Shown here one piece after another: positions 688 to 31,053 of a DNA stretch of 64,000 bases. Numbering within the stretch: position 1 is the first letter of the stretch; every line of letters starts with the position of its first letter. The stretch is taken from NCBI GenBank assembly GCA_003235715.1, contig QJVM01000155.1:4577-68576 (forward strand). Direction: 5' to 3'. The translations under genes and the position numbers were made by a program. Below the pieces are notes generated by a model. The model had not been told where the DNA came from. It did no database searches and saw only the letters and a list, made by a program, of their open reading frames with translations. This stretch comes from Nitrospirota bacterium. GTDB lineage: Bacteria > Nitrospirota > Thermodesulfovibrionia > SZUA-242.

Positions 688-836
688 CGGAAGGACCTGT
701 TTCCCTGTTCCGTCAGGAATTTCCGCTGCTAGCGGAACGCGGAGGCGGGGCCGGATGCTAAGATAGGATGCCCCTCGAAAACTGCACGTAAGCGGCACGG
801 CCCGGGGAGCAGTCGGAAAGATGCGGAGGTTGTTCC

Positions 837-12019: not shown

Positions 12020-12700
12020 CTATTCATATTCGACGAGATCACGATAACGATACACTTCCGAAAGCACAACGTCCACGAATGCTTCATCATGCCCGAACTT
12101 GGCCAGCATCTTGTCCCGAAGCGAACCGTCCTCGGGCCCCAGATAGGAGGTCTTCCGGTGCAGGGCGGCATCAGAGAAATCCACAGCGGAGATGATTCGG
12201 GCGATATCGACAACCTCCCTCAGCGTCTCCGGTCCCATATCGTCCGGAATTTCATCGCACCGGATACCGTAGGTTCCGCCTCCCCCCATCTCATGGTGCA
12301 GCCCGGCGATCAGGGCCGAAAAGAGATGGACATCCTTGAGCAGGGCAAATCCCTTCTCGGCATGCTCGGTGATCCGCCGATACTCTTCCGGGCTTACGTC
12401 GTGCCCGTCGAAGAGTTGAGCCGGAAGGAGGATCTTTCCATAGTCGTGGAGCAGTCCGCCGTAAAAAGCGGCACGAGAATCCCGTCCGGTCTGGCGGGCC
12501 ACCCGGTCAGCCGCCAGGGCCACGCGACACGTGTGAGACTTGACCGTGGGGTCAAACCGGTTCAGGGCATTGAGGTAGTCGTGGCACGTGTCGGCAATAT
12601 GGCCTCGGTTACCGTAAACCTCGAAGCGGCCTTCGATGAGTTCCGATAGGGTCATTCCGTTCTTGAGGGGTCTCCGGCCCGGCGTCTTTGTCTCTTCCAT
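12020..12700 (-). CDS. HD-domain metal-dependent phosphohydrolase
   Basis: 226 aa with H...HD (GGLLHDYGK) and a downstream HxxxG...D pattern. It heads the HD-namZ-murU/amgK - strand operon. Confidence 0.7.
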   Translation of the reverse strand: MEETKTPGRRPLKNGMTLSELIEGRFEVYGNRGHIADTCHDYLNALNRFDPTVKSHTCRVALAADRVARQTGRDSRAAFYGGLLHDYGKILLPAQLFDGHDVSPEEYRRITEHAEKGFALLKDVHLFSALIAGLHHEMGGGGTYGIRCDEIPDDMGPETLREVVDIARIISAVDFSDAALHRKTSYLGPEDGSLRDKMLAKFGHDEAFVDVVLSEVYRYRDLVEYE

Positions 12701-12794
12701 GCCCGGGCTTTCATTTTGCTATAATCGGTCTCACAAACCGGACGGGGACTCCTCGTCCGTCAATCCCGGAGCCCCGTCCCGCATCCCTCATTGC

Positions 12795-13865
12795 ATGAAG
12801 ACACCGACTTTCAACCGGACCGTCTTCCGCGAACTGGTTTACACGTTTTCGCTGACCCTGGTTCTTTCCAGCACGGTGCTGCTCTTTGAAAGCCTGTACC
12901 GGATCATGAAGATGAGTCAGGGAGTCCCCATGCGCGAGGTCGTGAAACTCATCGTGTGGATTCAGCCGTCGTTTCTCGTTCTGGGAATACCGATGTCCCT
13001 CTTGATTGCCGTCCTGGTGGTCTATGGACGCATGACCATGGACAACGAGACCATTGCCCTCTCCGCCCTTGGAACTCCGTTTTCAATCATAGCACGCCCC
13101 GCCGTAGGTTTCAGTGCCCTGTGCCTTGTCCTGGCCCTCGGTGTAAGCCTGTATTTCTTCCCCCTCGGCAACCGCCTCTTCCGCGAAACCCTGTACGAAG
13201 CCATGACGAGTCACCTGTCCATCGATCCGGGCGTTATTAACGACCAGTTTCCAAACCTTCTCCTCCAGGCCAATATCAAGCATGACGATCGGACCTTCGG
13301 GGAACTCTTTCTGTATAACACAAAGGACCCGGAACGTCCCGTGGTCGTGACGGCACGCAGAGGCGAGGTGTATTCGGATCCCCAACGGGGAGTCTTCCAG
13401 TTTGTGCTTGAGGATGGGGACGTCCATGTGAACACCTCCGGGACGTCGTATACCTATCTGACCTTTGGTCGGTATTTCATGGAATTCAGTCTTGCCGGAG
13501 CCGGTGTGGCCTATGGCGGGACAGAAATGTTTATTCCGGAACTCTGGAAGGCCGCTACACGAGGGCCGGAAGACAAACGGCAAAGCCGCCTGACCCAGTT
13601 CCACAAACGTCTGGCCCTTCCCGTTTCCTGTCTGCTTCTGGGCTATCTGGCCCCAGGACTGGCCGGGTTCGTGGGGCGCGCGGGCCGGCTCGGGGGGTTT
13701 GCCCTGGCCCTGGTGGTGATATGCGGCTACTACGCCCTTCTGGTATTCGGGGAAAGTCTCGCCCGGACGGGCCAAATGCCGGCCGGGGTCGCCGTATGGG
13801 GCGCCAATGGCCTTCTGGGCATCGTGGCACTCAGCGTATATCGCTGGAAGTCCCGCGGCCCCTAG
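12795..13865 (+). CDS. lptF: LPS export ABC permease LptF (YjgP/YjgQ family)
   Basis: Start moved to ATG 12795 because the ORF-track start overlaps the divergent HD gene. It has 6 TM helices plus a periplasmic beta-jellyroll (FRELVYTFSLTLVLSSTVLLF...) and is paired with lptG. Confidence 0.8.
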   Translation: MKTPTFNRTVFRELVYTFSLTLVLSSTVLLFESLYRIMKMSQGVPMREVVKLIVWIQPSFLVLGIPMSLLIAVLVVYGRMTMDNETIALSALGTPFSIIARPAVGFSALCLVLALGVSLYFFPLGNRLFRETLYEAMTSHLSIDPGVINDQFPNLLLQANIKHDDRTFGELFLYNTKDPERPVVVTARRGEVYSDPQRGVFQFVLEDGDVHVNTSGTSYTYLTFGRYFMEFSLAGAGVAYGGTEMFIPELWKAATRGPEDKRQSRLTQFHKRLALPVSCLLLGYLAPGLAGFVGRAGRLGGFALALVVICGYYALLVFGESLARTGQMPAGVAVWGANGLLGIVALSVYRWKSRGP

Positions 13866-13901
13866 GCGTACGGAACGGATGTCCAACAGGGACCCAAACC
13901 C

Positions 13902-14975
13902 ATGACCATCCTTACACGCATGTACCTCCGACAAAGCCTGAACGTTCTGGCACTGACGGTTTGCGCCGTACTCAGCCTGTCCCTGTTGTTCGAGTTCTTT
14001 GAAGTCGTGAAATCGGCCTCGAAGACGGATGCTTCCATGGGACTCGTGGTTCGCTATCTTGCCTACGCCGCTCCCCGCTATGCGGTTTTCGCCATTCCCC
14101 TGGGCGTTCTGCTTTCCACGATGATTGTTCTGGGAATGTCCGCCCGGAAACAGGAACTGACAGCCGTCCGCTCCCTTGGCGGGTCCCTTCGCCGGATGTC
14201 CCTTGTCTTTGTCGCCATGGGATTCTTCTGGACAGGGGTCACCTACCTCCTTTCCGAATACATCATCCCGGAGGCTTCGAAGAAAGCCGTGCACATCCTG
14301 ACCGTGGAAATCGAGAAGAAGGAAACCCAGGGTTCCTATCTGCGCGACAAACACTGGCTTCGGATGAGAAACGGAGGGCTCGCCGAGATCGACGTCATGT
14401 CCGGCGATGAAATCCGGGGGGTCTCCCTTTATGAGTTCAAAAGCGGCATGGAGAAAAGAATCGAGGCCTCCGGAGGACAGTGGAAAGAAAACCGGTGGGT
14501 CCTCACGGACGTTGAAATCTTTACGTTCCGTGACGGGGCCATGACGACGGAACGCTCGGACACCCTTGAGGTATACATCCTGCCAGCTCCCCGTTTGCTC
14601 CGGGAAGAACAGAGAAAGCCGGATGAGATGACATTCAGGGAACTTCGGACCTATGCCCGCAACCTGGAGAGAGCGGGCATACGTGCCGACCGATACCGGG
14701 TCACGCTTCAGAGCAAGACGGCTTTTCCTCTCGTCTGTGTGGCCATGGGCCTGTTAGGGGCCGGACTGGCGTTGCGGGAGCGCTCAGGAGGGTCACGCTT
14801 CCGGATGATCGCTCTCTGCACGACGGTCATCGTCGCCTATTGGGGCCTGAACATGCTCATGCTCTCTCTGGGTTATGTGGGCCGCATTCCGCCCGTGGCT
14901 TCGGCGTGGCTGACCCCCGTCGTGTTTCTGGGTGGAGGCTCCTTTGTTTTTCTGCGGGCCGAAAGGATTCAATAG
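13902..14975 (+). CDS. lptG: LPS export ABC permease LptG (YjgP/YjgQ family)
   Basis: 357 aa with the YjgP/YjgQ architecture (MTILTRMYLRQSLNVLALT...), immediately after lptF. Confidence 0.8.
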   Translation: MTILTRMYLRQSLNVLALTVCAVLSLSLLFEFFEVVKSASKTDASMGLVVRYLAYAAPRYAVFAIPLGVLLSTMIVLGMSARKQELTAVRSLGGSLRRMSLVFVAMGFFWTGVTYLLSEYIIPEASKKAVHILTVEIEKKETQGSYLRDKHWLRMRNGGLAEIDVMSGDEIRGVSLYEFKSGMEKRIEASGGQWKENRWVLTDVEIFTFRDGAMTTERSDTLEVYILPAPRLLREEQRKPDEMTFRELRTYARNLERAGIRADRYRVTLQSKTAFPLVCVAMGLLGAGLALRERSGGSRFRMIALCTTVIVAYWGLNMLMLSLGYVGRIPPVASAWLTPVVFLGGGSFVFLRAERIQ

Positions 14976-17867: not shown

Positions 17868-18410
17868 TCATTTTCCGGACCCGGATTCCGGCTGAGTTCG
17901 TCTGTTCATGATCTTTTCCAGGGTATCCCGGTAGGTGGCCGTGGCGACGGCATCACCGGCCTTCATCGCCAGGTCGACGGCCTGACGGGACAGGTTCTCC
18001 GCCTCCTCAAGGTCTCCTCCCCGCTCCAGCATCAGCCAGGCCAGGTTATTCAGGGCTTCGGCACATTCGGGCTCCAAATCCAGTGCGACCCGGTAGTGTT
18101 GTTCCGCAGTGTCATACTTTCCTTTACCAAACCAGGCGTTGCCCAGGCACAGTTCGGCCCTGGCCCGGTGCTTGCCTCTCCGCGCCAACTCGTATTGGCC
18201 AATCGCGAGGTCCCACTCCCCTCTTTGTTCGTAGGCCGCACCCAGAGCGAGATGGTCCTCCGGGCCGAGGGGGTCCTCGATCACCCGGATGCTCGGTCCG
18301 GTACACGCGGCTCCGGGAAAGAGCAATACGGCCATCATCAATACCGAGAGGATTTTCAACGACCTTCTCCTGGGCTCAGAAACATGCCCCACCGACCCGT
18401 ACGTTCCCAT
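17868..18410 (-). CDS. secreted/lipoprotein TPR-repeat protein
   Basis: 180 aa with a signal peptide (RRRSLKILSVLMMAVLLFPGAAC) followed by 3-4 TPR units (ALGAAYEQRGEWDLAIGQYELA...AEALNNLAWLMLERG). Its 5' end overlaps the upstream C39-like gene by ~55 nt if ATG 18410 is the start. Confidence 0.65.
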   Translation of the reverse strand: MGTYGSVGHVSEPRRRSLKILSVLMMAVLLFPGAACTGPSIRVIEDPLGPEDHLALGAAYEQRGEWDLAIGQYELARRGKHRARAELCLGNAWFGKGKYDTAEQHYRVALDLEPECAEALNNLAWLMLERGGDLEEAENLSRQAVDLAMKAGDAVATATYRDTLEKIMNRRTQPESGSGK

Positions 18411-18958
18411 TTTCTCAGCAGACCAGGGTAATCCTCGTGGACGTCTTTCTTGTTTCCATCATGTACGAAGAGCCCGTTGTCATCAAAACCCGTAATTACC
18501 AGAAAGTGTCCCTGCCGCACGATCCAGAATCCTTCGTCCACGAGCAAGAGAACCGGGCGTCCCCCCCGGATTTCCTCCCGGACCGCTTCAAGGTCCAGAG
18601 CGCCCTGCTGCACGTTGTAGCCTTGATTCTTGGCAAACAGGTAAAGGTCCAGGGTCAGCGTTCCCCGGGCCTCGGAAGAGAAGACCGCCTCTGAGACGGC
18701 CTCCGGGGTGACCGGGTTTCCCCAGAAATTCAGAATGGAAGCTAGGGCCGCCGGGCCACATTGGTGGGCCGTCTGCTGGTGAAATGGAACCTTCAACAGG
18801 GTGAGGGAGGACTCCACGACTCCCGCAAAGGTCGGAGAGAGCACCAGAAATAATAGAAAACCGAAGAAACCTCTTTTCCGGCCACACCCCCGAAAAAACG
18901 CCGGGGCCCATAGGCCCCGGCCCGGTAAGAATTTCCGGGGTTGCAGGCCCCCGCACAT
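18356..18958 (-). CDS. C39-like (papain-fold) cysteine peptidase domain protein
   Basis: The motif QQTAHQCGPAALASILNFWG (Cys in a Q-C-G-P context) plus downstream His/Asp blocks (VITGFDDNGLFVHDG) match C39-like peptidase domains. The start is uncertain because a terminator-like hairpin lies 40 nt inside the ATG-18958 reading frame. Confidence 0.65.
   Translation of the reverse strand: MCGGLQPRKFLPGRGLWAPAFFRGCGRKRGFFGFLLFLVLSPTFAGVVESSLTLLKVPFHQQTAHQCGPAALASILNFWGNPVTPEAVSEAVFSSEARGTLTLDLYLFAKNQGYNVQQGALDLEAVREEIRGGRPVLLLVDEGFWIVRQGHFLVITGFDDNGLFVHDGNKKDVHEDYPGLLRKWERTGRWGMFLSPGEGR
18891..18920 (-). terminator. intrinsic-terminator-like hairpin (8-bp GC stem, 4-nt loop, T6) between the secretin/small-protein genes and the C39/TPR genes
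   Basis: On the - strand: ccggggcc-tatg-ggccccgg followed by cgttttttc. + strand coordinates 18901-18920 with the A-run at 18893-18898. Confidence 0.4.
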
Positions 18959-18963
18959 CGTCC

Positions 18964-19368
18964 CTACTCGATAATGACCTTATGCCCCGTAAGCTGGAGC
19001 AGGATGACCACCAGAATGGCAATGACCAGGATGGCGATGACCGCCCCAAGTGCCCCGTCGCCCCCCTTTTGAAGCAGGTCGAAGTTCGTGGCCATCTCAT
19101 GCAAGGTTGCGTCGTCGAGCTGGGCCAGGCGTTCCTCGACCTCGGCAGGGTTCAGGCCCAGGTCCTCCATCCTTTCCGTAACCACACGCGTTTCCAGGGC
19201 CTGCCTGATGCGCTCGAGGCTATCGCTCCGATCCGTTCCCTCGTCGCTGTAGAGCGTGGCAGAGGGGACAAATCCCGCAAACACATCGCCCGGAAAAGAG
19301 CCCACGATAAAAAGGGCTAGGGCAAGATACGAACCCATCAGGCGAAAATAAACTTTATCTCTGGCCAT
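18964..19368 (-). CDS. small bitopic membrane protein (N-terminal signal/TM, acidic middle, C-terminal TM)
   Basis: 134 aa. The N-terminus LMGSYLALALFIVGSFPGDVFA and the C-terminus GALGAVIAILVIAILVVILLQL are both hydrophobic. It sits 23 nt downstream of the secretin gene, and its stop is 5 nt before the C39 ATG. Confidence 0.5.
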   Translation of the reverse strand: MARDKVYFRLMGSYLALALFIVGSFPGDVFAGFVPSATLYSDEGTDRSDSLERIRQALETRVVTERMEDLGLNPAEVEERLAQLDDATLHEMATNFDLLQKGGDGALGAVIAILVIAILVVILLQLTGHKVIIE

Positions 19369-19391
19369 CTTCTTACCTCCTCCCGGTGAAA

Positions 19392-21347
19392 CTAGATATC
19401 TTCATGGTCAATGCGCTTTCGAATCAGGCGCACACGGTTGCGGTACTCTTCAGTGATAGCATCCGCTTCCTCGGAACCGGTCACGATATGAGGGGTCACT
19501 ATGATGAGGAGTTCCGTCCTGTCGCTCTTATCACTCGTCACGCCGAACAGGGCTCCCAGGTAAGGAATATCCGACAGGAAGGGGACCCCGCTGTGTGTCT
19601 TGTTCGCCACCTCCGAAATCAGTCCTCCGATGACCAGCGTATGGCCATCCTCGACAATCGCGGTCGTCTTGGCCTTGCGCGTATTGAAGACCGGGGAATT
19701 AATGCCCTCCACAAGAGCGTCGGCCACCGTGCTGATCTCCTGGGAAATCTTCAGGGTTACCATGTTCTTGGCATTGATCTGGGGCGTAACCTCGAGAATG
19801 GTTCCGGTGGTCCGATACTGGATCTGGCCCACCGTGGAGCCGGTGCTTGTATCCGTGGTCAGGTTGCCCGTGGCGGTGGGAACATCCCTACCCACCTCGA
19901 TCCGTGCCTCCTTCGAGTCGGTCGCAAGGATGGTCGGGCTCGAAAGAACCTTGAGCTGGTCTCTCTGGGCGTACAACCTAAGAAGAGCAGAAAACCGGCC
20001 TGCATCGAGAACCGCTGCAAAGGCCCCCGAGGAAGGAATAACCATTTCATTGACACTATCGATGCCACCCTGAACCATTCCTGTCGCCACATCCACCACG
20101 CGCCCCCCGACCTTGGCCGTATCCCTGAGAAGCCATTCGAGTCCGTACTCCTCTGCATCCGTCAGCGTCACTTCGGCCACCATCACGTCGATCAGGACCT
20201 GGCGCCTCGGCGTATCGAGTTTCTTCAGAGCGTCCACGATGGCCAGGTATTCCTTGGGCGTGGATTTGATGATAATGGCATTGATGTCCTCATAGGCCGT
20301 GATCACGACCTCCCCAAACGTCTCGCCGGATATTGTCGTGGGCGTCGTTGTTTCAGGCGTGGTCGTCTTTGCGGCCGCCTGTCGGGTGGCCAGGGCCCGA
20401 CGTCGTGCGGCCGCAAGCTGGGCCGCCCTGGAGGCGGCAGCGGTGGCGGCCGGCGTTGGCCTCTCCCCTGTGGTATCCGCGAAAATCTGCTTCAGAATCT
20501 CCACCAGAGACTTGGCCTCTCCATGCTCCACGTAATAGACAAACGTCCGGATGCCCTCGGATTCGGTCTCGGCCACATCGACGGCTTCCAAAATCTTCAT
20601 CAGGCGTCTCAGTGCATTGGGCCGGGCCGTAATGATGAGGAGATTTGTCGGCTCGTAAACCACGAGGTCCGCGCCACGGGGCAGGAGGTTCCGGAGTATC
20701 CCGGCCGCATCCGCCGCCTTCACGTTCTCGACCACCACGATCTGGGTCACAAACCCTGAATCGAGCTTCATCTCGATTTCCTTCCCCTTGCCAACCCCAA
20801 GCGGCATCCCCTTGGCCTGATCAATGGGAAGAATCGTGTAAAAGTGACCCTCCTGCACGGCGGTGAGATTGTTCATCTCGAGTATCGCCTGAAACACCGT
20901 AAAGAGGTCCTCGACCGGAAACTTGCTGTTGGACTGGATGGTGACGCTACCCGAGATGCCGGGCCCCAAAATGTAATTGATGCCCAGGATATCGCCCACG
21001 GTCTCGATGACCGTGTTGATATCGGCATTCTCGAAGTTCAGAATGATGTTCTTGGTGTCATCCGTCTCCTCTGTCGTGACCCTTCGCCGCCTCCGAGCCT
21101 CCTCCTGTTCAGCGGCCTGCCGGGCCGCCTCCTGCTCAGCAAGAAAAGGCTCGGGCAGCGCTTCCTCCGCAGCGGGCTCCCGCGAGGGCTCCTCGGCCGC
21201 CGGTTGAACGATAACGGGCTCGACCGCCTCCTTCGTGGAGGCACACCCTCCGGCCATGACCAGCCATGACAACGCCACAACCAGCAGGGCGAGAGCCGGC
21301 AGACGCCTATTGCTCAGTTCCATAAGAATTGGTCCTTGTTCTATCAT
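19392..21347 (-). CDS. gspD: secretin, type II secretion system GspD family (lipidated N-terminus)
   Basis: 651 aa with signal peptide plus lipobox (LVMAGGCAS), N0/N1-type domains (NIILNFENADINTVIETVGDILGINYIL), a Thr/Pro linker and a secretin C-domain (VPFLSDIPYLGALFG...ELLIIVTPHIV). Confidence 0.85.
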   Translation of the reverse strand: MIEQGPILMELSNRRLPALALLVVALSWLVMAGGCASTKEAVEPVIVQPAAEEPSREPAAEEALPEPFLAEQEAARQAAEQEEARRRRRVTTEETDDTKNIILNFENADINTVIETVGDILGINYILGPGISGSVTIQSNSKFPVEDLFTVFQAILEMNNLTAVQEGHFYTILPIDQAKGMPLGVGKGKEIEMKLDSGFVTQIVVVENVKAADAAGILRNLLPRGADLVVYEPTNLLIITARPNALRRLMKILEAVDVAETESEGIRTFVYYVEHGEAKSLVEILKQIFADTTGERPTPAATAAASRAAQLAAARRRALATRQAAAKTTTPETTTPTTISGETFGEVVITAYEDINAIIIKSTPKEYLAIVDALKKLDTPRRQVLIDVMVAEVTLTDAEEYGLEWLLRDTAKVGGRVVDVATGMVQGGIDSVNEMVIPSSGAFAAVLDAGRFSALLRLYAQRDQLKVLSSPTILATDSKEARIEVGRDVPTATGNLTTDTSTGSTVGQIQYRTTGTILEVTPQINAKNMVTLKISQEISTVADALVEGINSPVFNTRKAKTTAIVEDGHTLVIGGLISEVANKTHSGVPFLSDIPYLGALFGVTSDKSDRTELLIIVTPHIVTGSEEADAITEEYRNRVRLIRKRIDHEDI

Positions 21348-21898
21348 CGCCGGCGACGACTGGCGGGCCGGGAAGCTGGCTCCGCCGGTTCAGGCGTCTG
21401 GCCTCGAAGCTTGAGGTCCACGGGTTCACCCTTCCAGGTGAGCCGGGCCTCGAGAATCCCGATCTCCACCACTTCAAAGTTATCGAACATGTCTCCCACC
21501 CGGTAGGGCTGGGACCTCTCGTTATCCACCGAAATCAGGGCAATGCGCTCCCCGGACGGGTCCTCCAGAACCCCCTTGAGCATCACCGCCGGCATGGGCT
21601 CCGGAGGTGGGGGCGGTTCCTCCGGCATAACCACGACAGGTTCCACCGGCGGAGGCGGCGGGGGGGCCTTCACCACGCCGGTTCGGGTCGGGTGAAACAG
21701 GTTCCTTTCGAAAATATCCTTCCCCCCCGTGGCCCTGTACTCCGTGTCCGGCAGACCTCCAACAGACCGGGTGGCCGTCCCGACCGAACCGGCCGCATCA
21801 GCCACCGGATCGTACCCGGTCAGAATGGCCCGCACCGTAAACAAAGAATAGAGGAGAAGGCCCAACAAGACAAGCTCAAGTGCAACTTTACGTATCAT
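21344..21898 (-). CDS. GspC/PilP-like secretin-interacting protein (TM + poly-Pro + HR-type beta domain, no PDZ)
   Basis: 184 aa with an N-terminal TM (LELVLLGLLLYSLFTV), PPPPPP runs, and a C-terminal domain (VMLKGVLEDPSGERIALISVDNERSQPYRVGDMFDNFEVVEIG) resembling GspC-HR/PilP. It is overlap-coupled to gspD and to the gspM-like gene. Confidence 0.5.
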   Translation of the reverse strand: MIRKVALELVLLGLLLYSLFTVRAILTGYDPVADAAGSVGTATRSVGGLPDTEYRATGGKDIFERNLFHPTRTGVVKAPPPPPPVEPVVVMPEEPPPPPEPMPAVMLKGVLEDPSGERIALISVDNERSQPYRVGDMFDNFEVVEIGILEARLTWKGEPVDLKLRGQTPEPAEPASRPASRRRR

Positions 21899-22428
21899 AA
21901 CCGCATTATCCCGTGCACGGCAATTTTTATGTTCAGCGTTTCCGGGTCACGAACATTGGCCACAGAAACAGTAAGTTTGCTCACGTAAAGCCCCAGCCTT
22001 GACCGTTCAACCTTCCGGACAAAGTCTCTCAGGGAGGCTATTCTACCCCTGAACTCGAAGAGGAGCGGAACCTGGACAAAGTCCCCCCGTTCCAGAGGGG
22101 GCATGGGCTTCACCGTCTGAAGACTGAGACCCACGCCCTCAGCCATATCGCTCACCACCCGCTGCAGTTCAGCCGAGGCCAGCGCCGGTCCGGGGCTCGT
22201 CATAAACCGTTCCTCATACGATCTCAGTTCGTCATCGAGATCGGCCGCGAGACTCCCTAAGCCGTCGAACTGTTCGGACATGGACCGGTACTTGACGAGG
22301 AGCCGGTACCGGCTGAACAGTTCATCCTGCACGTTGACGTCATCGCTCCCAGGCCCGGCCACCAGGAGGTAGCCGATCACCACAACGCCCAAGGCCATCA
22401 CGAGAATCTTTCTTTTACTGACCTTCAT
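21895..22428 (-). CDS. GspM/PilO-like inner-membrane T2SS assembly protein
   Basis: Start at internal ATG 22428 (MKVSKRKILVMALGVVVIGYLLVA). It is bitopic with a ~150-aa periplasmic domain; the call rests on position between the gspL-like and gspC-like genes. Confidence 0.5.
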   Translation of the reverse strand: MKVSKRKILVMALGVVVIGYLLVAGPGSDDVNVQDELFSRYRLLVKYRSMSEQFDGLGSLAADLDDELRSYEERFMTSPGPALASAELQRVVSDMAEGVGLSLQTVKPMPPLERGDFVQVPLLFEFRGRIASLRDFVRKVERSRLGLYVSKLTVSVANVRDPETLNIKIAVHGIMRL

Positions 22429-23722
22429 GGCTGACCTGTTCCCAATACATTCGGATCGAAAAATGTTCTCCCATGGGCTGGACGATGACCGGGCCGGCCA
22501 TTTCCGCTCCAACAAACTGGTCCGATTCCTCCAGAAGTGCCAGGATTTCAGAGGAACGCGAGGAATAGCCGTCTATTTCGATCTTGCCCTTCTCGTCCAT
22601 ATCAAAGTTCACGAGCCACGTGTCCCGGGGCAGAATCCGGCTCAACTCCCCAAGAGCCACAAAAGGCCGATTCCGGTCAGCAAAGAACGGCCGGAGCACT
22701 TTAAGCGACCGGATCACGTTCTCGCGCTCCTTCAGCGGGCCCGAAGCCGAGTCAACGTTCTGGCGGAGCGTATTGAGTTCCTGGGTAACTTCGGCAAGCG
22801 CCCTCTCGTCGATTCGGGATTTCACCGTGACCTGAAAATAGAACGCGACCACCAGGAGACTCATGAGAAGCCCCAGAATAATATTGTGAGGATTCCGCTT
22901 GGTTCGGAAGGATTCCGGAAGAAGGTTCAGGAGGAAACTCCCCCGCGGGGTTTTCGTCCCGTCTCCTGGAAGCGTTTCTGCGACTTTTACGTTAATCCCC
23001 CTCAAGCTCGAGGCCGCCGTCCTGATCCCGGACTCGTTCCTTCCGTAAAACCAGACTTCCCTGCACCGGTGAAGCTCAGCCTCCCTTTCGATGGACTTCG
23101 CAATCATCACGGGATGGAGGTCCGGGTCAGGCGGAAGTTCGAGCGCTTTCAGATCCAGGGGTCTTCCGCCCTTGATCACGGCGAGGTCCGCCGTATCCTC
23201 CCCCATCCCCACCGAAAGAACGTCCGGGCCTGTCGCCTGCAGGGCATGGAACCGAAGGGCGCCCAGTTCAACGGAACGCACCACAATCTCCGCAGCCTGA
23301 AGGGCCTCGAGAAAGGGCGTGAGAAAGGAACGGGGGACTCCGGCTGCAAGGGCTTTGACCCCCTTTGCCCCGGACTCCAGAAAAGAGTAGGCCCAGTAGA
23401 AATTGTCCAGCGAAACCGGAAGCTTGCGCTCAAACTCAAAGGGGAGGGCCTTGCGGGCATCCGCGATCTTCATGGGCGGAAGTTCCAGAAGCGAAACCAC
23501 CGTCCGGTCAAGGGGCAACTCCAGAAGGACCCACTCCACCTTGCGTTCCTTGAGAAATCCGGTAAGCAGAAGGGGCGCCGGCTTATCTCCGGCCGCCTCA
23601 CCGCCCTGTTCCGGCCGGATGACTCCTCTTCCGCGGTCAGGCGCCCCCAGGGCTTCCTTGTCCGTCAGAACATAGGGAAACGCCGCCCCATCCAGCCTGA
23701 CGATGGCCCCTCGCTTAGACAT
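22415..23722 (-). CDS. GspL-like T2SS protein (cytoplasmic actin-like domain + TM + periplasmic domain)
   Basis: Start at ATG 23722 (MSKRGAIVRLDGAAF). It has a ~240-aa cytoplasmic part, a single TM (NIILGLLMSLLVVAFYFQV) and a ~140-aa periplasmic domain, matching GspL (or a PilM+PilN-like) architecture. Confidence 0.6.
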   Translation of the reverse strand: MSKRGAIVRLDGAAFPYVLTDKEALGAPDRGRGVIRPEQGGEAAGDKPAPLLLTGFLKERKVEWVLLELPLDRTVVSLLELPPMKIADARKALPFEFERKLPVSLDNFYWAYSFLESGAKGVKALAAGVPRSFLTPFLEALQAAEIVVRSVELGALRFHALQATGPDVLSVGMGEDTADLAVIKGGRPLDLKALELPPDPDLHPVMIAKSIEREAELHRCREVWFYGRNESGIRTAASSLRGINVKVAETLPGDGTKTPRGSFLLNLLPESFRTKRNPHNIILGLLMSLLVVAFYFQVTVKSRIDERALAEVTQELNTLRQNVDSASGPLKERENVIRSLKVLRPFFADRNRPFVALGELSRILPRDTWLVNFDMDEKGKIEIDGYSSRSSEILALLEESDQFVGAEMAGPVIVQPMGEHFSIRMYWEQVSHEGQ

Positions 23723-24671
23723 CGTCCCTCCACTGGAGCACGCGAACCTTGTAACCCGCCCCGTGGGGTTCCCGGCGAACAAAGGCCTCCAGGGATCTCG
23801 TATACTCTGTCCCCGCCGGTTTGGCGGAAGCCGCGATCCGGAAGCAATCCGAAGCCGTGGCGGTTATCCCCACTTTCCGGGCCGAGGCGGGGACCACCAG
23901 CACGGGGCCATTGGCCCGTTGCAGGAGGATGCTTTCGATATCGGTGTAGGGGACGCCGAGCAGGCTCATGGTTTCCGCCGAAACGGTATTCACGTTCATG
24001 CCGGTCTGAGGACAAATGCTCAGATGCCCGTAAATCCCCGTCAGTTCCCGCTCTGGATTTCCGAAGAGCACGTCGATGTCCATTCCCTTGACCATGAGAA
24101 GTTCGTCAATCGTGCTGAAAGGACCGTTCTTGGCCACGTACCCTTCGGACTCATAATGGTCTGTCTCGGCGCCGTTCAAAAGCCTCTCGTCATCCGGATC
24201 CCGCCAGTCCAGTATCGAATCGGCCAATTCATCGGCAGCTTTATCCTCCACACCACTTCGGAGGAGGAGGTCCATGATGGCATTGCGGGAAGCCGTATTG
24301 AGGTTCAGTTTGGCACTCTCATCGTTGATCCGGACGTCCACGGTTCCAAAATCCAGTTCCCGGTGCCCCTCAAAGGCTTCCCCCTCGGTTTCAACCACCA
24401 GTCGGCCTTCAGGGTCCTCGAAATCCACGCTCCGGTCGGGGTCGTTCATCAGAAACCGGACCGCATCTTCGTAAGCCGCAACAGCTTCATAATAGGCTTC
24501 GGCATCCTCCTTGAAATTGCGCACGCTGGTCAGCCCGGTTCGCATGCTGAGGGCAAAGGTCGCGCCGATAATCGCAAGCAACACCACGACCCAGAGGGTC
24601 ATCAGAAGGGCGATCCCTCTCGGTGTTCCCGCCACCCGCGACCATAAGGAATGGGTGCCCTTTGGGCTCAT
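23715..24671 (-). CDS. gspK: T2SS minor pseudopilin GspK-like
   Basis: 318 aa. The N-terminus RGIALLMTLWVVVLLAIIGATFA is the GspK-type pseudopilin segment, and the large periplasmic domain contains a GspK-like helix-hairpin-helix region (NLNTAS...LL). Confidence 0.65.
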   Translation of the reverse strand: MSPKGTHSLWSRVAGTPRGIALLMTLWVVVLLAIIGATFALSMRTGLTSVRNFKEDAEAYYEAVAAYEDAVRFLMNDPDRSVDFEDPEGRLVVETEGEAFEGHRELDFGTVDVRINDESAKLNLNTASRNAIMDLLLRSGVEDKAADELADSILDWRDPDDERLLNGAETDHYESEGYVAKNGPFSTIDELLMVKGMDIDVLFGNPERELTGIYGHLSICPQTGMNVNTVSAETMSLLGVPYTDIESILLQRANGPVLVVPASARKVGITATASDCFRIAASAKPAGTEYTRSLEAFVRREPHGAGYKVRVLQWRDDV

Positions 24672-24686
24672 CGCGTCCTTCGGGGC

Positions 24687-26369
24687 CTAGGTGACCCGAA
24701 GGACCTCCTCCAACGTGGTGATACCTTCATAAGCCTTGTTGAGACCATCCTCGTACAGGGTTTTCATTCCCTGTTCCATCGCATAGGTCCGGATCCGGTT
24801 TGATGTGGCATTCTCCATGATCAGAAGCCGCAGGTTGTCATCCACCCGGAGAAACTCATAGATCCCTATTCTCCCCCTGTATCCCGAGCCGTTGCATTCC
24901 GGACAGCCGGCCCCCCGGTGAAGCACCTCGACTTTCCGGCCAAAGATCTGGTCCGCATCCTTGCCCGGTTCATAAGGAGTGCGGCAGGAACCGCAAATTC
25001 TTCGTACCAGGCGCTGCGCCATAACCCCAACGAGGGTCGAGGATACAAGAAAATTCTCTACGCCCATGTCCAAAAGACGCGTGATCGCCCCCGGGGCGTC
25101 GTTGGTATGCAGCGTGCTGAAGAGGAAATGACCGGTCAAGGCGGAATGAACCGCGATCCCCGCCGTCTCGAGATCTCGGATTTCGCCGACCATGATGATG
25201 TCCGGGTCCTGCCGAACGATGTGCCGGAGTCCGGTGGCAAAGGACAGACCGATCTTGGGGCGCACCTGGATCTGGTTGATACCCGACATCTGGTATTCGA
25301 CGGGTTCTTCGATGGTAATGATCTTCTTGTCCGGTGAGTTCAGTTTGTCCAGGGAGGCATACAGCGTCGTCGTCTTGCCGCTTCCGGTCGGTCCCGTAAT
25401 CAGGAACATGCCGTAGGGAAGTTCGATAAGCTCTTCGTAATGTCTCTTGAGATCGCCGCTGAACCCGAGGTCCTCGAGTGAATAAAAGGCCGAAGACTTG
25501 TCAAGCACACGCATGACCACGCTCTCGCCATGAACCGTGGGAAGGGTGGAGACGCGGAGGTCCACTTCCCGCCCTCCGTAGACCCCCTTGATCCGTCCAT
25601 CCTGGGGCAGTCGCCTCTCGGCAATGTTCATCTGGGCCATGAGTTTCACGCGAGACGACAAAGCCGCCTGCATGCGTTTGGGAAAGGTCTGAGATTCATG
25701 AAGGATACCGTCAATCCGATACCGAACCCGGAAGACCCCCTCAAACGGTTCCAGGTGAATGTCGCTGCACCGGTCATTGACCGCATTCTCGATGATCACA
25801 TTGACCAGTTGAATGATGCCCCTGTCCTGGGCCAGGTCCTTGAGCTGGCTGACCTCGCCCGACTCCGGAATCGGACCTCCCGTTCGATCCTCTTCCTCCT
25901 CTTCCTCCACCACGTCCATGATTCGCTTCATAACGGCCCCGCGGGAACCGTAGAGCGATTCAAGAGAGTCCAGGATGTCTTCTTCAAGCCCGACAAATAT
26001 CTCCAGCCGGCGGCCAAGGGACGTCTTCAGGTTGCTGAGGGCCACACGATTCCCGGGGTCGGCCACCACCACCGTGAACACGTCGGCCGTCATCTTCACA
26101 GGAAAGATTCGATTCTCCCTCAGGAAGTCAAAGGAAATGGGATGGTCCACGAACGCGTCCTTCGGAAACTTCTCGGAAGTGAGGTACGGATACCCTGTAT
26201 GACGACTGATGGCCTTGAGAAGGTCTTCCTTGGACAGCCCGAACTCAAGAAGAATCTCGCCCACCCGCCGCGGAGGTTCCTCGGTTTGCTGGATTTCCAG
26301 CACATGGTCGACCTGCTCTCGCGAAGCGAGACCCAGTTCCACCAGAATGTCACCAAAATGGGTCGCCAA
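24687..26369 (-). CDS. gspE: T2SS/T4P-family secretion ATPase GspE (N-terminal GSPII_E_N/MshEN domain)
   Basis: 560 aa with Walker A (GPTGSGKTTTLYA), Asp and His boxes, a tetra-Cys Zn motif (CGSC...CPEC) and an MshEN-type N-domain (ILVELGLASREQVDHVLEIQQ). Confidence 0.9.
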   Translation of the reverse strand: MATHFGDILVELGLASREQVDHVLEIQQTEEPPRRVGEILLEFGLSKEDLLKAISRHTGYPYLTSEKFPKDAFVDHPISFDFLRENRIFPVKMTADVFTVVVADPGNRVALSNLKTSLGRRLEIFVGLEEDILDSLESLYGSRGAVMKRIMDVVEEEEEEDRTGGPIPESGEVSQLKDLAQDRGIIQLVNVIIENAVNDRCSDIHLEPFEGVFRVRYRIDGILHESQTFPKRMQAALSSRVKLMAQMNIAERRLPQDGRIKGVYGGREVDLRVSTLPTVHGESVVMRVLDKSSAFYSLEDLGFSGDLKRHYEELIELPYGMFLITGPTGSGKTTTLYASLDKLNSPDKKIITIEEPVEYQMSGINQIQVRPKIGLSFATGLRHIVRQDPDIIMVGEIRDLETAGIAVHSALTGHFLFSTLHTNDAPGAITRLLDMGVENFLVSSTLVGVMAQRLVRRICGSCRTPYEPGKDADQIFGRKVEVLHRGAGCPECNGSGYRGRIGIYEFLRVDDNLRLLIMENATSNRIRTYAMEQGMKTLYEDGLNKAYEGITTLEEVLRVT

Positions 26370-26378
26370 CTCGACTCC

Positions 26379-27911
26379 TCACTTTCCGGAAAATCCGGAA
26401 AACGTACCCAGCATGTATTTCAGGTCCTCGTCCTCGAGACGGATGCCGCCACCCAGGAACAGACCGCTCGAATGCGCATTCAGCGCATTATCCCAGCCCG
26501 CGACCAGAATCAGATGATTCCAGAGCGCATACTGCGCTCCAACCTTGAGGTGGGGGTTCTCAGCCTGAGGTTCATTTTCCTTGAAATCCCAGATATCTGC
26601 AAATAAGGACAGTCTGTCGTCAAAAAGATGGTAGGCCGTCCCGAAACCAAAGGTGTTTTCCATGAGCCCGGCCCGAAACTCCAGGTCATGATAACTTCTT
26701 GACAACAAAGCCGTAAATTCGAAGTTTTCCCGGGTGGTTTCCTGGACGGTGGTGGTCGAAACGCCGTCGACCGTGGTCACGGTCCTCTTTTTCCGCGTGT
26801 ATCCGAGGGGGTCGCTCACAACGCCGATGAGATAATACCGGTCCGGCGCCGGCTGGAACCGAATATTCAAATACCCCTTGGTCTCGCCGATGCGGGTGAG
26901 GCTCTCGCCCTGGAAGTCCACAAACGTCCGGAAGCGCCGTATCCGGCCGAGTTCGGCATCGATCCCTTCAGCCGCTTTGGTCACGGACTCATACAGGCGG
27001 TCATCGGTGACGAGCTTTCCGAGCGTTCCCTCGCCCTTCTCCACCTTGTCCGTCATGCGATTCAGGGACTCCATGGCCTGTCCGGCCTGAACGGACAGTT
27101 TCTCGAGTGATTTGGCGCCTTCAATGGCAGGCTGTCGCATCTCTGAAATGAGGACCCTCAGGTCTCCGGCGGCGGCCGTGATCTGCTCCAGGGCCATGGG
27201 GGCCTCCCGGTTCAGATAGTCCGTAAGCTCGTTAAGTCCCGTCAAGGTCTTCGAAACCGAGGGACCCTCGCGGTCGATCAACCCCTGGACGGAAGCCGTC
27301 ACCTCCGTCAGGCTGTCCAGCAAGCGCCGAAGTTTTTCGTCGTTCACCGCCACCGCATCATTCAGATGCTCCGTGATCGAGCGCATATTCTTGGCGCTCT
27401 CTGCAATGGCCTGGGTGGTTTCCTCGTCCCCGAGCACGCGGCCCACCGCTTCCGCGATATCCGCGAATCTCGAGGCCATGGACGAAAGATTGGCCACGAG
27501 GGCATCGTAATTGGTGGGCTGAACCGTATGGACAACCGTATCTCCGTCCTTGAGCGCGGGGGTCCTCTCGGTTCCGGTTTCCAGCGCCACGTACTTGTCC
27601 CCCAGCAGCCCGAGCGACTGTATCGAAGCCACCGCATCTTCATGAACCAGAACGCCGGGATCCAGACGGAGAACGACCCGGGCCCTTCCTTCCTGAAGCT
27701 GAACCTCTTCCACAATTCCCGCATTCACCCCGGCCACCTTTACCCGCGTATCCCTTTCCACTCCCACGATACTGTCGAAGAAGGCATAAAGGACGTAGCC
27801 TTCCTTCTCCTTGAACTTAAGTCCTCCAACCTGCAGGGTCATGAAGGAGAGAATCAGGATGACCAGGACGGCAAACAGGCCCACCTTAAGCTCGGGAGAA
27901 AGCACTTTCAT
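26379..27911 (-). CDS. mlaD: MlaD/MCE-domain protein with a ~330-aa C-terminal extension (coiled-coil plus beta-rich domain)
   Basis: 510 aa with an N-terminal TM (VGLFAVLVILILSFMTL), a canonical MCE domain (YAFFDSIVGVERDTRVKVAGVNAGIVEEVQL...SLGLLGDKYVALETG), then heptad-like helical sequence and a C-terminal domain with alternating hydrophobic strands. A typical MlaD is ~160-190 aa. Confidence 0.8.
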   Translation of the reverse strand: MKVLSPELKVGLFAVLVILILSFMTLQVGGLKFKEKEGYVLYAFFDSIVGVERDTRVKVAGVNAGIVEEVQLQEGRARVVLRLDPGVLVHEDAVASIQSLGLLGDKYVALETGTERTPALKDGDTVVHTVQPTNYDALVANLSSMASRFADIAEAVGRVLGDEETTQAIAESAKNMRSITEHLNDAVAVNDEKLRRLLDSLTEVTASVQGLIDREGPSVSKTLTGLNELTDYLNREAPMALEQITAAAGDLRVLISEMRQPAIEGAKSLEKLSVQAGQAMESLNRMTDKVEKGEGTLGKLVTDDRLYESVTKAAEGIDAELGRIRRFRTFVDFQGESLTRIGETKGYLNIRFQPAPDRYYLIGVVSDPLGYTRKKRTVTTVDGVSTTTVQETTRENFEFTALLSRSYHDLEFRAGLMENTFGFGTAYHLFDDRLSLFADIWDFKENEPQAENPHLKVGAQYALWNHLILVAGWDNALNAHSSGLFLGGGIRLEDEDLKYMLGTFSGFSGK

Positions 27912-28666
27912 GCATATCCTCCTTCAACGCGAATGGGGCCCTCGGCCCGGCCAGCCACGAATTGACTCACCACCGGACTGGAGGTCTTACGGATTTCCTC
28001 CGGGGTTCCGACTTCGATGATTCTTCCGGAATACAGCATCGCGATCCGATCCGCAATTTTAAATGCACTCGTCATATCGTGCGTAATGGTCACCGAAGTT
28101 ACGCTGAGCCGTTCCCGGAGCGAGAGGATGAGATCATTGATGATGTCCGCCATGATGGGGTCCAGACCCGTTGTGGGCTCATCATAAAGGATACACTCCG
28201 GCTCGGTGGCAATGGCACGCGCCAGTCCGACCCGCTTCCGCATACCCCCTGACAGGTCGGCCGGCATGACGTCTTCGATTCCGCTCAGGCCCACCATACG
28301 GAGTTTCTCTGAAGCAATGCGCCGAACCTCCCGCGGCTTGAGCGAGGTATGTTGTCTCAGGGCAAAGCCCACATTCTCCCAGACGCTCATGGAATCAAAC
28401 AGGGCCGCGCCCTGAAAAAGCATACCCATCCGTCTTCGAAGATCATTGAGCCCGTGCTCGTCCAAACCGGAAATGTCGCTTCCGTCAATAAGAACCCGGC
28501 CGCCATCCGGCCGGAGGAGCCGAATGATGTGCTTGAGAAGCACGCTCTTTCCGGAACCGCTCCCGCCGATGACCACCATGCTTTCGCCCCGCTTGACTTC
28601 CAGGTCCACGCCGTCCAGGACCGCCTTGTCCCCGAAGGATTTGGTGAGTCCCTCGATCCGGATCAC
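27908..28666 (-). CDS. mlaF: ABC transporter ATP-binding protein MlaF
   Basis: The start was reassigned to GTG at 28666-28664, preceded by AGGAGG with a 9-nt spacer; the ORF-track start would overlap mlaE. Walker A (GGSGSGKS), LSGGM signature and Walker B (ILYDEPT) are present. Confidence 0.85.
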   Translation of the reverse strand: MIRIEGLTKSFGDKAVLDGVDLEVKRGESMVVIGGSGSGKSVLLKHIIRLLRPDGGRVLIDGSDISGLDEHGLNDLRRRMGMLFQGAALFDSMSVWENVGFALRQHTSLKPREVRRIASEKLRMVGLSGIEDVMPADLSGGMRKRVGLARAIATEPECILYDEPTTGLDPIMADIINDLILSLRERLSVTSVTITHDMTSAFKIADRIAMLYSGRIIEVGTPEEIRKTSSPVVSQFVAGRAEGPIRVEGGYA

Positions 28667-28679
28667 CTTCGAACCCCTC

Positions 28680-29480
28680 CTATTGAAACAGCCAGGACGA
28701 TAGGAAATAGTCCGATATGAGAACCGCCATGGAAGCCATGACGACCGCCCGGGTGGTGGCCCGGCCCACGCCCGCCGCCCCGCCCTCGGAGTGGTACCCC
28801 TGGTAGCAGGAGATGAGCGCAATGGCGCCCCCGAAGAAAATCGCCTTGTAGAGCCCGTGGTAGATGTCGGTGATGGTCAGATAGTCCCACGTTCGGTTCA
28901 GATAGAGCGTCGGATTGGCCCCCAGAACCCGCGTGCTCACGAAATATCCTCCCAGGATCCCCACGGCATCCGAAAAAACGGTAAGGGCCGGAAGCATGAC
29001 GATCCCCGAAAGAAATCGAGGAACCACAAGATACTGGACGGGGTTTGTGGCCAGGGTCTCGAGGGCATCGATCTGCTCCGTCACCCGCATGGTTCCCAGT
29101 TCAGCAGCCATGGCCGCCCCGGCTCGCCCGGAAACAATAAGGCCGGTCAGCACCGGTCCGAGTTCCCGGGTCATGGAAAGGGCCACGACCGAACCCACGA
29201 GGCCCTCGGCCCCAAACCGCTTGAACCCGATGTAGCTCTGGAGCGCGAGTACGGCACCCGTAAAGGCCGCCGTAATGAGAACCACAGGCAGCGAATTCAC
29301 ACCAATCTCCACCAGTTGGCGGAAGAGATTCCTCAAATTATAAGGCGGCGCGAACACGAGCCGGAGGGTTTTGGCAAGCATGATGACCAGGCCTCCGGCC
29401 AGCGAGAGAGGCCTCATCAGGATGGCTCCCAGATATTCTACGGGCCGGAGGAGAGCAGGCGTCGACGCCTCAGCCCTCAT
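28680..29480 (-). CDS. mlaE: ABC transporter permease MlaE
   Basis: 266 aa with the MlaE/Ttg2B permease pattern (LVEIGVNSLPVVLITAAFTGAVLALQS...TEQIDALETLA). Confidence 0.85.
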   Translation of the reverse strand: MRAEASTPALLRPVEYLGAILMRPLSLAGGLVIMLAKTLRLVFAPPYNLRNLFRQLVEIGVNSLPVVLITAAFTGAVLALQSYIGFKRFGAEGLVGSVVALSMTRELGPVLTGLIVSGRAGAAMAAELGTMRVTEQIDALETLATNPVQYLVVPRFLSGIVMLPALTVFSDAVGILGGYFVSTRVLGANPTLYLNRTWDYLTITDIYHGLYKAIFFGGAIALISCYQGYHSEGGAAGVGRATTRAVVMASMAVLISDYFLSSWLFQ

Positions 29481-30577
29481 GGTAAACCCTCCGAACGCGC
29501 CGACCCACAGAAGTGAGAATCTCGTAGGGAATCGTACCGGCGAGTTCGGCGACCCGATCCGCCCAGAGTTTCGTATTCTCGCTTTCGCCGATGAGAATCG
29601 CTTCGTCTCCCACCTGGACCGGCCCTGCCTCGGTCACGTCCACCATGGTCAGGTCCATGCAGACCCGGCCCACCACCGGCACCTCGGTACCCCCGACGAG
29701 AACCCGGCCCTTGTTCGATAGCGCGCGGGAAAACCCGTCCGCATATCCCACACTGAGGGTGGCGATGAGGCTTTCCCGAGATGTCCGGTACGTACGGCCA
29801 TAACTGATGGGGGTTCCCGGCGAAACGCGCTTGATGGCGATCACCCGCGTGGACACTCTCATCGCCGGCCGCAGCCCAGCCTCCTCGAGGGCAGGAGCGG
29901 GGTTATATCCGAAGAGCATGAGCCCCGGCCGGACCATATCAAAATGAGCAGTTGGAAAACGGATGACCGCCGCGCTGTTGGCCATATGTTTGAGCGGGAT
30001 GGAAACGCCTTCCTTCGCGAGGCCTTCCGAAACCCTGGTGAAAACGCCTACCTGATCTTGAACGACGGCCGGGTTTTCGAGTTCCGCATCCGAAAAATGA
30101 CTCGACAGGCCCTCCACTGCTATTCCCGGCAGACCGCTGATCTGCAGGATGGTCCCCACGGCGGCCTCCGGAAGCAGTCCGACCCGCCCCATCCCTGTGT
30201 CCAGTTTGATATGAACCGGGATCCTCCGTCCTGTCCGCGATGCCTCGGCCGAAAGAACTTCCGCCTGGGGCACGCTCCAGATCACAGGGGTCAGGTTGTG
30301 GTGAACAACCTCGGCGACGGCAGACGGTTCCAGCCCGAAGAGAAGAACCAAAGGGCATGAAAGCCCGGCGTTGCGAAGCTCAAGCGCCTCTTCGAGGTGA
30401 GCCACGCCGAGCGCTTCGGCGCCGGCCGCGAGGAGGGTTCGGGAAACGGGAACAGCCCCGTGCCCGTAAGCATCGGCCTTTACGATCGCGAGGATCTTGC
30501 AGTTTCCAGCCCGGGAGCGGACGACACCAAGATTGTGGCGTATGGCCCCCAGGTCAATATGAGCCTCCAGGTAACTC
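29470..30577 (-). CDS. alr: alanine racemase (the start codon is non-canonical or unresolved)
   Basis: The conserved N-terminus IDLGAIRHNL...AIVKADAYGHG (PLP-Lys) lies upstream of the ORF-track start, which is actually a GTG at 30405. The in-frame region back to the TAA at 30586-30588 contains no ATG/GTG/TTG, only CTG and ATT. The C-terminal half is clearly Alr (VPVVGRVCMDLTMVDVT). Confidence 0.8.
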
Positions 30578-30806
30578 AGACGGTCTTACCTTCGTCGTTC
30601 TCTTCCTTCTTTTCCTCAACCTTCTTTTCCTCAACCTTGTCGCGCGGAGGCGATACATCAATCTCATCGTGGGAAACCGATTTCTTGAAATTCTTCATGG
30701 CCTCGCCGATACCCCGTCCGAGTTCGGGAAGGCGCTTCCCCCCGAAAATCACGATGACAATGATAAGGATGATGATGAGTTCCGTGGCTCCCAAACCGCC
30801 GATCAT
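30576..30806 (-). CDS. tatA: twin-arginine translocase subunit TatA/E
   Basis: 76 aa. [42 protein letters not shown] is the TatA TM-plus-amphipathic-helix signature, followed by an acidic/Lys-rich tail. Confidence 0.8.
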
Positions 30807-31053
30807 AGGCCTTCGCCTCCCTTGGGAAAGGTGGGATACGACGGGCAGGCAACCCGCAACCCATAGACCTCAGGCCTGCCCCGAATCCGTGAGAAAAAGA
30901 ACACCTAAACTTTACTTTGGGCATGCTTTTTTGTCAATCTTTGATCCGGAAAATCCAACGGTTTATTAAGTACTTAACAAGTCCACTCGTGGGAGGGTTG
31001 CCCTTGACTCCCCTTCGGTCTCCCCACGAACGGAACCCCTGGGGGGGAGAGGA

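Follow-up and report, generated by a model that had tools for sequence, protein, structure and literature searches.

Results

A Fourteen-Gene Array of mla, gsp and Peptidase Genes

The DNA under study is a 64,000-nucleotide stretch of a Nitrospirota genome (assembly GCA_003235715.1, contig QJVM01000155.1, positions 4,577 to 68,576 of the forward strand), referred to below as the window, in which the genes of an Mla-type lipid transporter run directly into genes of a type II secretion system (T2SS). The array comprises 14 co-directional open reading frames (ORFs) on the minus strand at 17868-30806, in the order tatA-alr-mlaE-mlaF-mlaD-gspE-gspK-gspL-gspM-gspC-like-gspD-DUF6627-C39 peptidase-TPR. 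It likely represents three independent envelope modules of known kinds held together in a block that is inherited and probably transcribed as one; the gsp genes would be a fragment of a dispersed T2SS. The original prediction, made from the letters of the DNA, had described this array, and all of its genes were found at their places with families (ORF list, Pfam, NCBIfam) that agree with its labels. Its "small TM protein" is also present and could be assigned more precisely to the PA2779 family/DUF6627 (NF033919 above the cut-off). In the direction of reading, the genes are as follows:

30576..30806, minus strand: tatA, 76 aa; Pfam TatA_B_E, 5.3e-17; located upstream of alr in relatives too
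29470..30563, minus strand: alr, alanine racemase; Pfam Ala_racemase_N/C
28680..29480, minus strand: mlaE, permease, 266 aa; Pfam MlaE, 2.7e-85
27908..28666, minus strand: mlaF, ABC ATPase, 252 aa; Pfam ABC_tran, 2.4e-31; start as called on an identical contig
26379..27911, minus strand: mlaD, long MlaD, 510 aa; Pfam MlaD, 8.1e-17
24687..26369, minus strand: gspE, T2SS ATPase, 560 aa; TIGR02533, 641.8 vs. a cut-off of 630.25; Pfam T2SSE, 2e-135, and MshEN
23715..24671, minus strand: gspK, minor pseudopilin, 318 aa; Pfam T2SSK_1st, 4.9e-14; NF037980, 94 bits, below the cut-off of 130
22415..23722, minus strand: gspL-like (PilM/PilN-type), 435 aa; Pfam PilN, 3.2e-7
21895..22428, minus strand: gspM, 177 aa; Pfam T2SSM_b; NF040576 (GspM_XpsM), 60.6 bits vs. 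a cut-off of 60
21344..21898, minus strand: gspC-like, 184 aa; NF041515 (GspC_delta), 9.4e-10, below the cut-off
19392..21347, minus strand: gspD, secretin, 651 aa; TIGR02517, 420.8 vs. a cut-off of 351.35; Pfam N0, Secretin_N and Secretin
18964..19368, minus strand: small membrane protein of the PA2779 family/DUF6627, 134 aa; NF033919, 76.6 vs. a cut-off of 40; Pfam DUF6627
18356..18958, minus strand: C39-like cysteine peptidase, 200 aa; Pfam Peptidase_C39_2; NF033920, 1e-27, N-terminal half
17868..18410, minus strand: TPR protein with a lipoprotein-like N-terminus; NF033920, C-terminal half, and TPR families

The Pfam matches T2SSK_1st, PilN and T2SSM_b all lie above their gathering thresholds. 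As to the NCBIfam cut-offs, GspE, GspD and GspM pass them and GspK, GspL and GspC fall below. The gspL homologues in relatives give either a weak T2SSL match or a combination of PilM_2 and PilN, and a homologue of the gspC-like product at locus L005 gives a weak match to PF11356 (T2SSC).

The gsp Genes Probably Form Part of a T2SS Whose Other Components Were Not Found in the Window

The gsp portion of the array shares the GspE, GspK, GspL-like, GspM, GspC-like and GspD families with the canonical Gsp/Pul/Xps T2SS, but differs from it in that no gspF, G, H, I or J was found over the whole 64 kb and no gspO among the scanned ORFs. The order of genes is different as well, E-K-L-M-C-D in the window vs. 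C-D-E-F-G-H-I-J-K-L-M in the canonical system; moreover, the window GspL is PilM/PilN-like, and no PDZ domain was detected in the window GspC. The original prediction had stated the absence of gspF and gspG/H/I/J, and this was upheld in three ways: by tblastn with Nitrospirota references (E<=1e-3), by Pfam searches on the major ORFs, and by a motif scan, which found no ORF with the prepilin G-F-T-L-I-E motif in the window. Neither a second gspE nor a second gspD was found within the 64 kb. The scanned window ORFs gave no match to peptidase A24 (GspO/PilD), the gene for which is usually unlinked.

We infer that the gsp genes are one fragment of a dispersed T2SS, with gspF, gspG-J and the prepilin peptidase gene elsewhere in the genome, and such a T2SS would be functional. 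A dispersed T2SS is known in Legionella, where the genes are split over five lsp clusters, including lspDE and lspFGHIJK (PMC6617341). Just as in the window, the Legionella genes occupy several loci and are flanked by unrelated genes. The partition differs, however, in that the window combines E with K-L-M-C-D.

The N-terminus of GspD (…LVMAGGCAST…, window 21240-21347) resembles a lipoprotein signal. If this signal is real, GspD would be a self-piloting liposecretin; no pilotin gene was seen.

The mlaD-gspE Junction Is Conserved in One Clade and Repeatedly Broken Up

The neighbourhoods of related genes were compared at about 170 loci in total (designated by L numbers). On the T2SS side, a GspK-profile scan with one genome per species provided the best 80 loci, which were mapped over 10-kb flanks with the window proteins and GspF-J references; the nearest genomic relatives found in this way are labelled Nitrospirota/Thermodesulfovibrionia. 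At 98% GspK identity, the window also matches a metagenome-assembled genome (MAG) that carries the NCBI label Thermodesulfobacteriota. On the Mla side, an MlaD-profile scan of metagenome contigs provided the best 80 further loci.

The GspK relatives fall into two architectures, the canonical gspD-E-[F-G-H-I-J]-K-L-M and a second one, K-L-M-C-D with or without gspE, which we call class A. Class A includes the window and is monophyletic in the GspK tree. The gene mlaD precedes gspE in 8 class A lineages (the window, L010, L009, L013, L016, L024/L093, L095 and L097), so that the adjacency is conserved in relatives, with GspK identity down to about 35%. In three other class A lineages (L014, L018 and L025), tatA-alr lies right beside gspE and leaves no space for mla, and unrelated genes precede gspE in a further two (L023 and L026). 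Six more (L008, L011, L012 and L019-21) carry gspK-L-M-C-D after ilvBN or other genes, with neither gspE nor mla. The DUF6627-C39-TPR tail follows gspD in 9 class A lineages and is missing in about 7. In L014, L018 and L025, only about 200 nt separate tatA-alr from gspE, as if mlaEFD had been cleanly excised from an ancestral order.

No gspF/G/H/I/J gene was found within ±10 kb of the class A loci in about 20 lineages (tblastn, E<=1e-3). A search for GspF homologues and their context returned other organisms only, with no whole-genome-shotgun prefix equal to that of a class A MAG. None of the class A MAGs recurs among the canonical loci, and within these best 80 matches the data suggest that class A is the sole GspK-bearing system in those genomes. 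All gsp ORFs are intact in the window and in about 20 lineages, and the GspK alignment retains 20 invariant columns across the aligned clade. At L013 (3491-5156, a Thermodesulfovibrio MAG), gspE appears as two adjacent fragments, which could reflect a frameshift or an assembly error.

The T2SS loci of the wider clade show still other orders: H-I-J-K-L-M-C-D-E-F-G (L027), D-H-I-J-K-L-M-C-E-F-G (L174), D-E-F-G (L089), E-F-G-D (L172) and E-F-G alone (L090). The Nitrospirota T2SS blocks HIJ, KLM(C), D and EFG are thus permuted in several ways, and EFG also stands alone.

On the Mla side, alr-mlaE-mlaF-long mlaD proved to be a widely conserved block in Nitrospirota. Its commonest state has no T2SS gene nearby, as found in about 50 loci with enough flank; the gene after mlaD in the T2SS-free loci varies by lineage, being radA in 7 loci, a galU-like gene in 6, purH in 4, and others elsewhere. 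The presence of gspE after mlaD is confined to one MlaD clade, and all loci where mla adjoins either T2SS genes or the peptidase pair belong to this same clade, with L101 as an exception. The clade also includes six loci (L091, L092, L096, L098, L115 and L151) where the peptidase genes come directly after mlaD with no T2SS genes between. The median length of MlaD is 494 aa in every group, and its domain content is the same with or without a T2SS neighbour.

MlaD Is Predicted to Have the Long Architecture

The window MlaD is built from an N-terminal transmembrane helix, an MCE domain, a helical region of ~190 aa and a C-terminal beta-rich domain of ~170 aa. In the AlphaFold2 (AF2) model, the beta structure of residues 39-130 is followed by helix at 136-324 and by ~10 strands over 328-493, the C-terminal part having a predicted local distance difference test (pLDDT) score of ~55-80. 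The pLDDT of the full-length monomer is low (54.9), and nothing beyond the order of its domains and the match of the MCE domain was taken from it; the helical part is modelled with low confidence, as published for the long MlaD class. When compared with the MlaD of MlaFEDB by Foldseek, the MCE domain gave target-normalised TM-scores of 0.66-0.88, and longer alignments match Mce1. An identical protein carries precomputed Pfam matches to MlaD, PF28544 (Helical_needle) and PF27164 (Aq_493_lipo). Judging from the model and these matches, the protein is of the long MlaD architecture. Long MlaD of ~490-510 aa has hundreds of homologues in Nitrospirota at roughly 40% identity.

Long MlaD has been proposed to be a self-sufficient transenvelope bridge (Grasekamp et al. 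2023, PMC10665443). The long-MlaD MlaEFD system of Veillonella parvula described there has the same mlaE-mlaF-mlaD operon as the window, and its MlaD likewise combines an N-terminal transmembrane segment, one MCE domain, a long helical region of low AF2 confidence and a C-terminal beta-rich domain. The C-terminal domain of the window MlaD is assigned from a moderate-confidence model and the precomputed PF27164 match. The published long-MlaD systems are without MlaB (PMC10665443); no STAS gene lies beside mlaFED in the window, where no search aimed at MlaB was made.

Unlike the V. parvula comparison system, the window genome encodes MlaA and MlaC too. The original prediction had placed their genes far from the array on the opposite strand, and Pfam located them at window 1-1439:

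ending at 687, plus strand: mlaA, 5′-truncated by the window start; Pfam MlaA, 5.1e-62
837-1439, plus strand: mlaC; Pfam MlaC, 1.6e-45

The same 64 kb also carries lptF and lptG at 12636-14975 on the plus strand.

The Tail Genes Probably Represent a Split PA2779/PA2778-Type Pair

The last three genes of the array are related to the PA2779/PA2778 pair, in which a small DUF6627 membrane protein likewise precedes a C39-like cysteine peptidase that carries TPR repeats. In contrast to this pair, the TPR part in the window has an ORF of its own, whose product shows a lipoprotein-like N-terminus, and the genes sit after a secretin gene. The C39 ORF matches positions 2-146 of the NF033920 model (PA2778 family) with 97.2 bits, below the cut-off of 150, and the TPR ORF matches positions 165-254 with 32 bits; the PA2778-type family is split into two genes both in the window and in relatives. 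Among the relatives, the peptidase retains its QCGP and His motifs, and the DUF6627 protein its C-terminal transmembrane segment.

Hidden Markov model searches over all loci found these tail genes in four settings only: beside gspD, immediately downstream of mlaD, upstream of alr-mlaEFD (at L101, with an MlaD from outside the main clade), and divergent from an orphan long mlaD of 28% identity (L145). Long mlaD is thus accompanied by the tail in three arrangements, in addition to the one beside gspD. In at least 30 other loci, long mlaD has no tail genes within 8 kb. No published function for PA2778/PA2779 or DUF6627 was found in the literature.

Spacing and Transcription Signals

The genes of the array are tightly packed, as the original prediction had held. 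The distances are −11 nt for alr/mlaE, +13 for mlaE/mlaF, −4 for mlaF/mlaD, +9 for mlaD/gspE, +15 for gspE/gspK, −8 for gspK/gspL, −14 for gspL/gspM, −4 for both gspM/gspC and gspC/gspD, +23 for gspD/DUF6627 and +5 for DUF6627/C39, where the starts of mlaF, gspL and gspM are those of independent gene calls. The C39 and TPR genes overlap by 55 nt if the maximal TPR ORF is taken; all other gaps range from −14 to +23 nt.

The gap between tatA and alr is about −4 nt, the alr frame being open to the tatA stop. A gap of 170 nt was rejected, as it arises merely from which start codon is chosen. Read from the tatA stop (window 30405-30576, minus strand), the alr frame encodes the conserved VKADAYGHG lysine region, and no ATG, GTG or TTG occurs in it before 30405. 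A CTG in a CTGA overlap with the tatA stop is the only candidate start, with an ATT a few codons after it as an alternative. This points to a non-canonical start of alr or to an ATG-to-CTG base error.

Over the 14.5 kb scanned for signals, none of the intergenic gaps contains a terminator-like hairpin. The best promoter-like match lies upstream of the first gene:

30909..30937, minus strand: sigma-70-like promoter match TTGACA-17-TAAAGT, ~100 nt upstream of tatA; a consensus match only

The numbers of promoter and terminator sites were not above those in shuffled sequence (6 vs. 3.7±2.0 and 17 vs. 14.5±4.2, respectively), and the scans support nothing beyond the statement that there is no obvious internal signal. 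Co-transcription from tatA through the TPR gene is plausible.

A strong GC hairpin (9 GC pairs) with a T-run is located at 18900-18921 on the minus strand, 43 nt past the DUF6627 stop, where the maximal C39 ORF has its 5′ end. Either this hairpin serves as an attenuator or terminator, or the true C39 start could lie farther downstream.

The GC content is even (~0.57-0.60). A recently acquired island was rejected in view of this evenness and of the old gene order.

Discussion

In this work, we examined whether an Mla transporter and a set of T2SS genes placed side by side on one Nitrospirota contig amount to more than neighbours. We consider it likely that three modules of known kinds were joined in one inherited block, which one Nitrospirota (Thermodesulfovibrionia-like) clade received from its ancestor. 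Because the mla-T2SS and mla-peptidase loci share one MlaD clade, the simplest history would be a single ancestral order, tatA-alr-mlaEFD-gspE-KLMCD followed by the tail genes, with repeated loss or relocation of each module thereafter. The first module (M, tatA-alr-mlaE-mlaF-mlaD) would provide the MlaFE ABC transporter and a hexameric MCE ring with a helical needle and the C-terminal beta-rich domain. By analogy with the published long MlaD, this protein may bridge the periplasm unaided and move phospholipid. The second module (T, gspE-K-L-M-C-D) would supply four parts of a T2SS, namely its ATPase, assembly platform, tip pseudopilin and secretin. The third (P, of the PA2779/PA2778 type) would contribute a periplasmic C39-like peptidase along with a small membrane protein, while a lipoprotein gene of its own encodes the TPR part. 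The adjacency of the modules would then reflect shared descent and operon packing, with no physical complex of Mla and the secretin.

The original prediction had regarded the T2SS part as either split or degenerate, or else as belonging to a distinct envelope machine in which long MlaD and the secretin co-operate. The split T2SS fits the data, while the distinct machine found no support. Such an integrated machine would unite MlaFE-long MlaD with GspE-K-L-M-C-D, the ABC transporter feeding a lipid or other hydrophobic substrate to the outer-membrane secretin. One may cite in its favour the 9-nt gap between mlaD and gspE with no internal terminator, the junction kept in 8 lineages with no F/G-J nearby, and the lack of any description of the mlaFED-gspE adjacency in the literature found. 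However, sister lineages carry the T2SS genes without mla (in three of them as tatA-alr-gspE, in six in another context and without gspE) and, in roughly 50 loci, alr-mlaEFD without the T2SS, and the length and three-part architecture of MlaD are the same everywhere. Since tatA and alr, which are functionally unrelated, are packed equally tightly, close spacing in this array is no sign of a common function. With its own C-terminal beta-rich domain, which by analogy would be the outer-membrane anchor, MlaD would need no secretin to reach the outer membrane. In addition, GspE, GspD and GspM pass the T2SS equivalog cut-offs, and GspK, as a pseudopilin, implies a pseudopilus. We therefore regard the integrated machine as highly improbable. 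The degenerate state, i.e., a decaying, non-functional T2SS remnant left after the loss of F/G-J, would agree with the absence of these genes from the window and all class A loci and with the scores of GspK, GspL and GspC below the NCBIfam cut-offs. It is nevertheless unlikely, and we find little room for it: the six ORFs are intact in the window and in ~20 lineages whose GspK identity has dropped to 34-59%, the invariant GspK columns persist, GspE and GspD score above the equivalog cut-offs, and class A is both monophyletic and old.

The tail module allows another explanation, according to which P is a functional accessory of trans-envelope machines, be it long MlaD or the secretin, and the T2SS genes were inserted or recruited beside an original mlaFED-P unit. 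Candidate roles for P would be the processing or anchoring of components or, for the TPR lipoprotein, that of an outer-membrane partner or pilotin. This explanation draws on the settings of P directly after mlaD, upstream of alr-mlaEFD and divergent from long mlaD, on its position behind gspD in 9 lineages, some of them with K-L-M-C-D-P relocated as a unit to the ilvBN context, and on the conserved catalytic Cys/His motifs and C-terminal transmembrane segment. On the other hand, P is missing near long mlaD in those 30 or more loci and after gspD in ~7 class A loci, local rearrangement of one ancestral block keeps genes close without selection, and the function of P is undocumented in the literature found. 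The P. aeruginosa PA2779/PA2778 pair, which presumably does not lie beside Mla or T2SS genes, counts against an accessory role too. On balance, we see the accessory role as possible but rather unlikely. A broader variant, in which M-T-P is an ancestral envelope "super-operon" maintained by selection, with P as a shared accessory or, in the extreme, with GspE-K-L-M-C-D tied to lipid transport without GspF and a full pseudopilus, appears doubtful to us.

Several points weigh against the interpretation of the array as three independent modules. The genes gspF and gspG-J and the prepilin peptidase gene were not located for the window genome or class A, and that the system is split is what we infer. 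The mlaD-gspE junction persists in relatives with no more than about 35-40% protein identity; a random adjacency would usually be lost sooner. The occurrence of P beside long mlaD in three arrangements and also beside gspD hints at a functional attraction, and it is the one pattern for which shared descent does not wholly account. Furthermore, the trees are simple neighbour-joining trees of single proteins, and most relatives are MAG or metagenome contigs, for which gene absences hold within the contig ends.

Taken together, the mlaFED-gspE junction is a gene order among known kinds of systems, not a new kind of system, and if the ordinary reading is true, its value is chiefly in annotation. 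From the comparison, K-L-M-C-D with or without gspE emerges as a monophyletic type of T2SS locus in Nitrospirota, one that automated detectors demanding co-located F/G may miss. It also cautions that tight spacing alone is no guide to function. Besides, long MlaD coexists with the shuttle components MlaA and MlaC in one Nitrospirota genome. Potential for discovery lies solely in the PA2779/PA2778-type module, whose recurrent position beside long MlaD and the secretin makes it a testable candidate for an envelope accessory.

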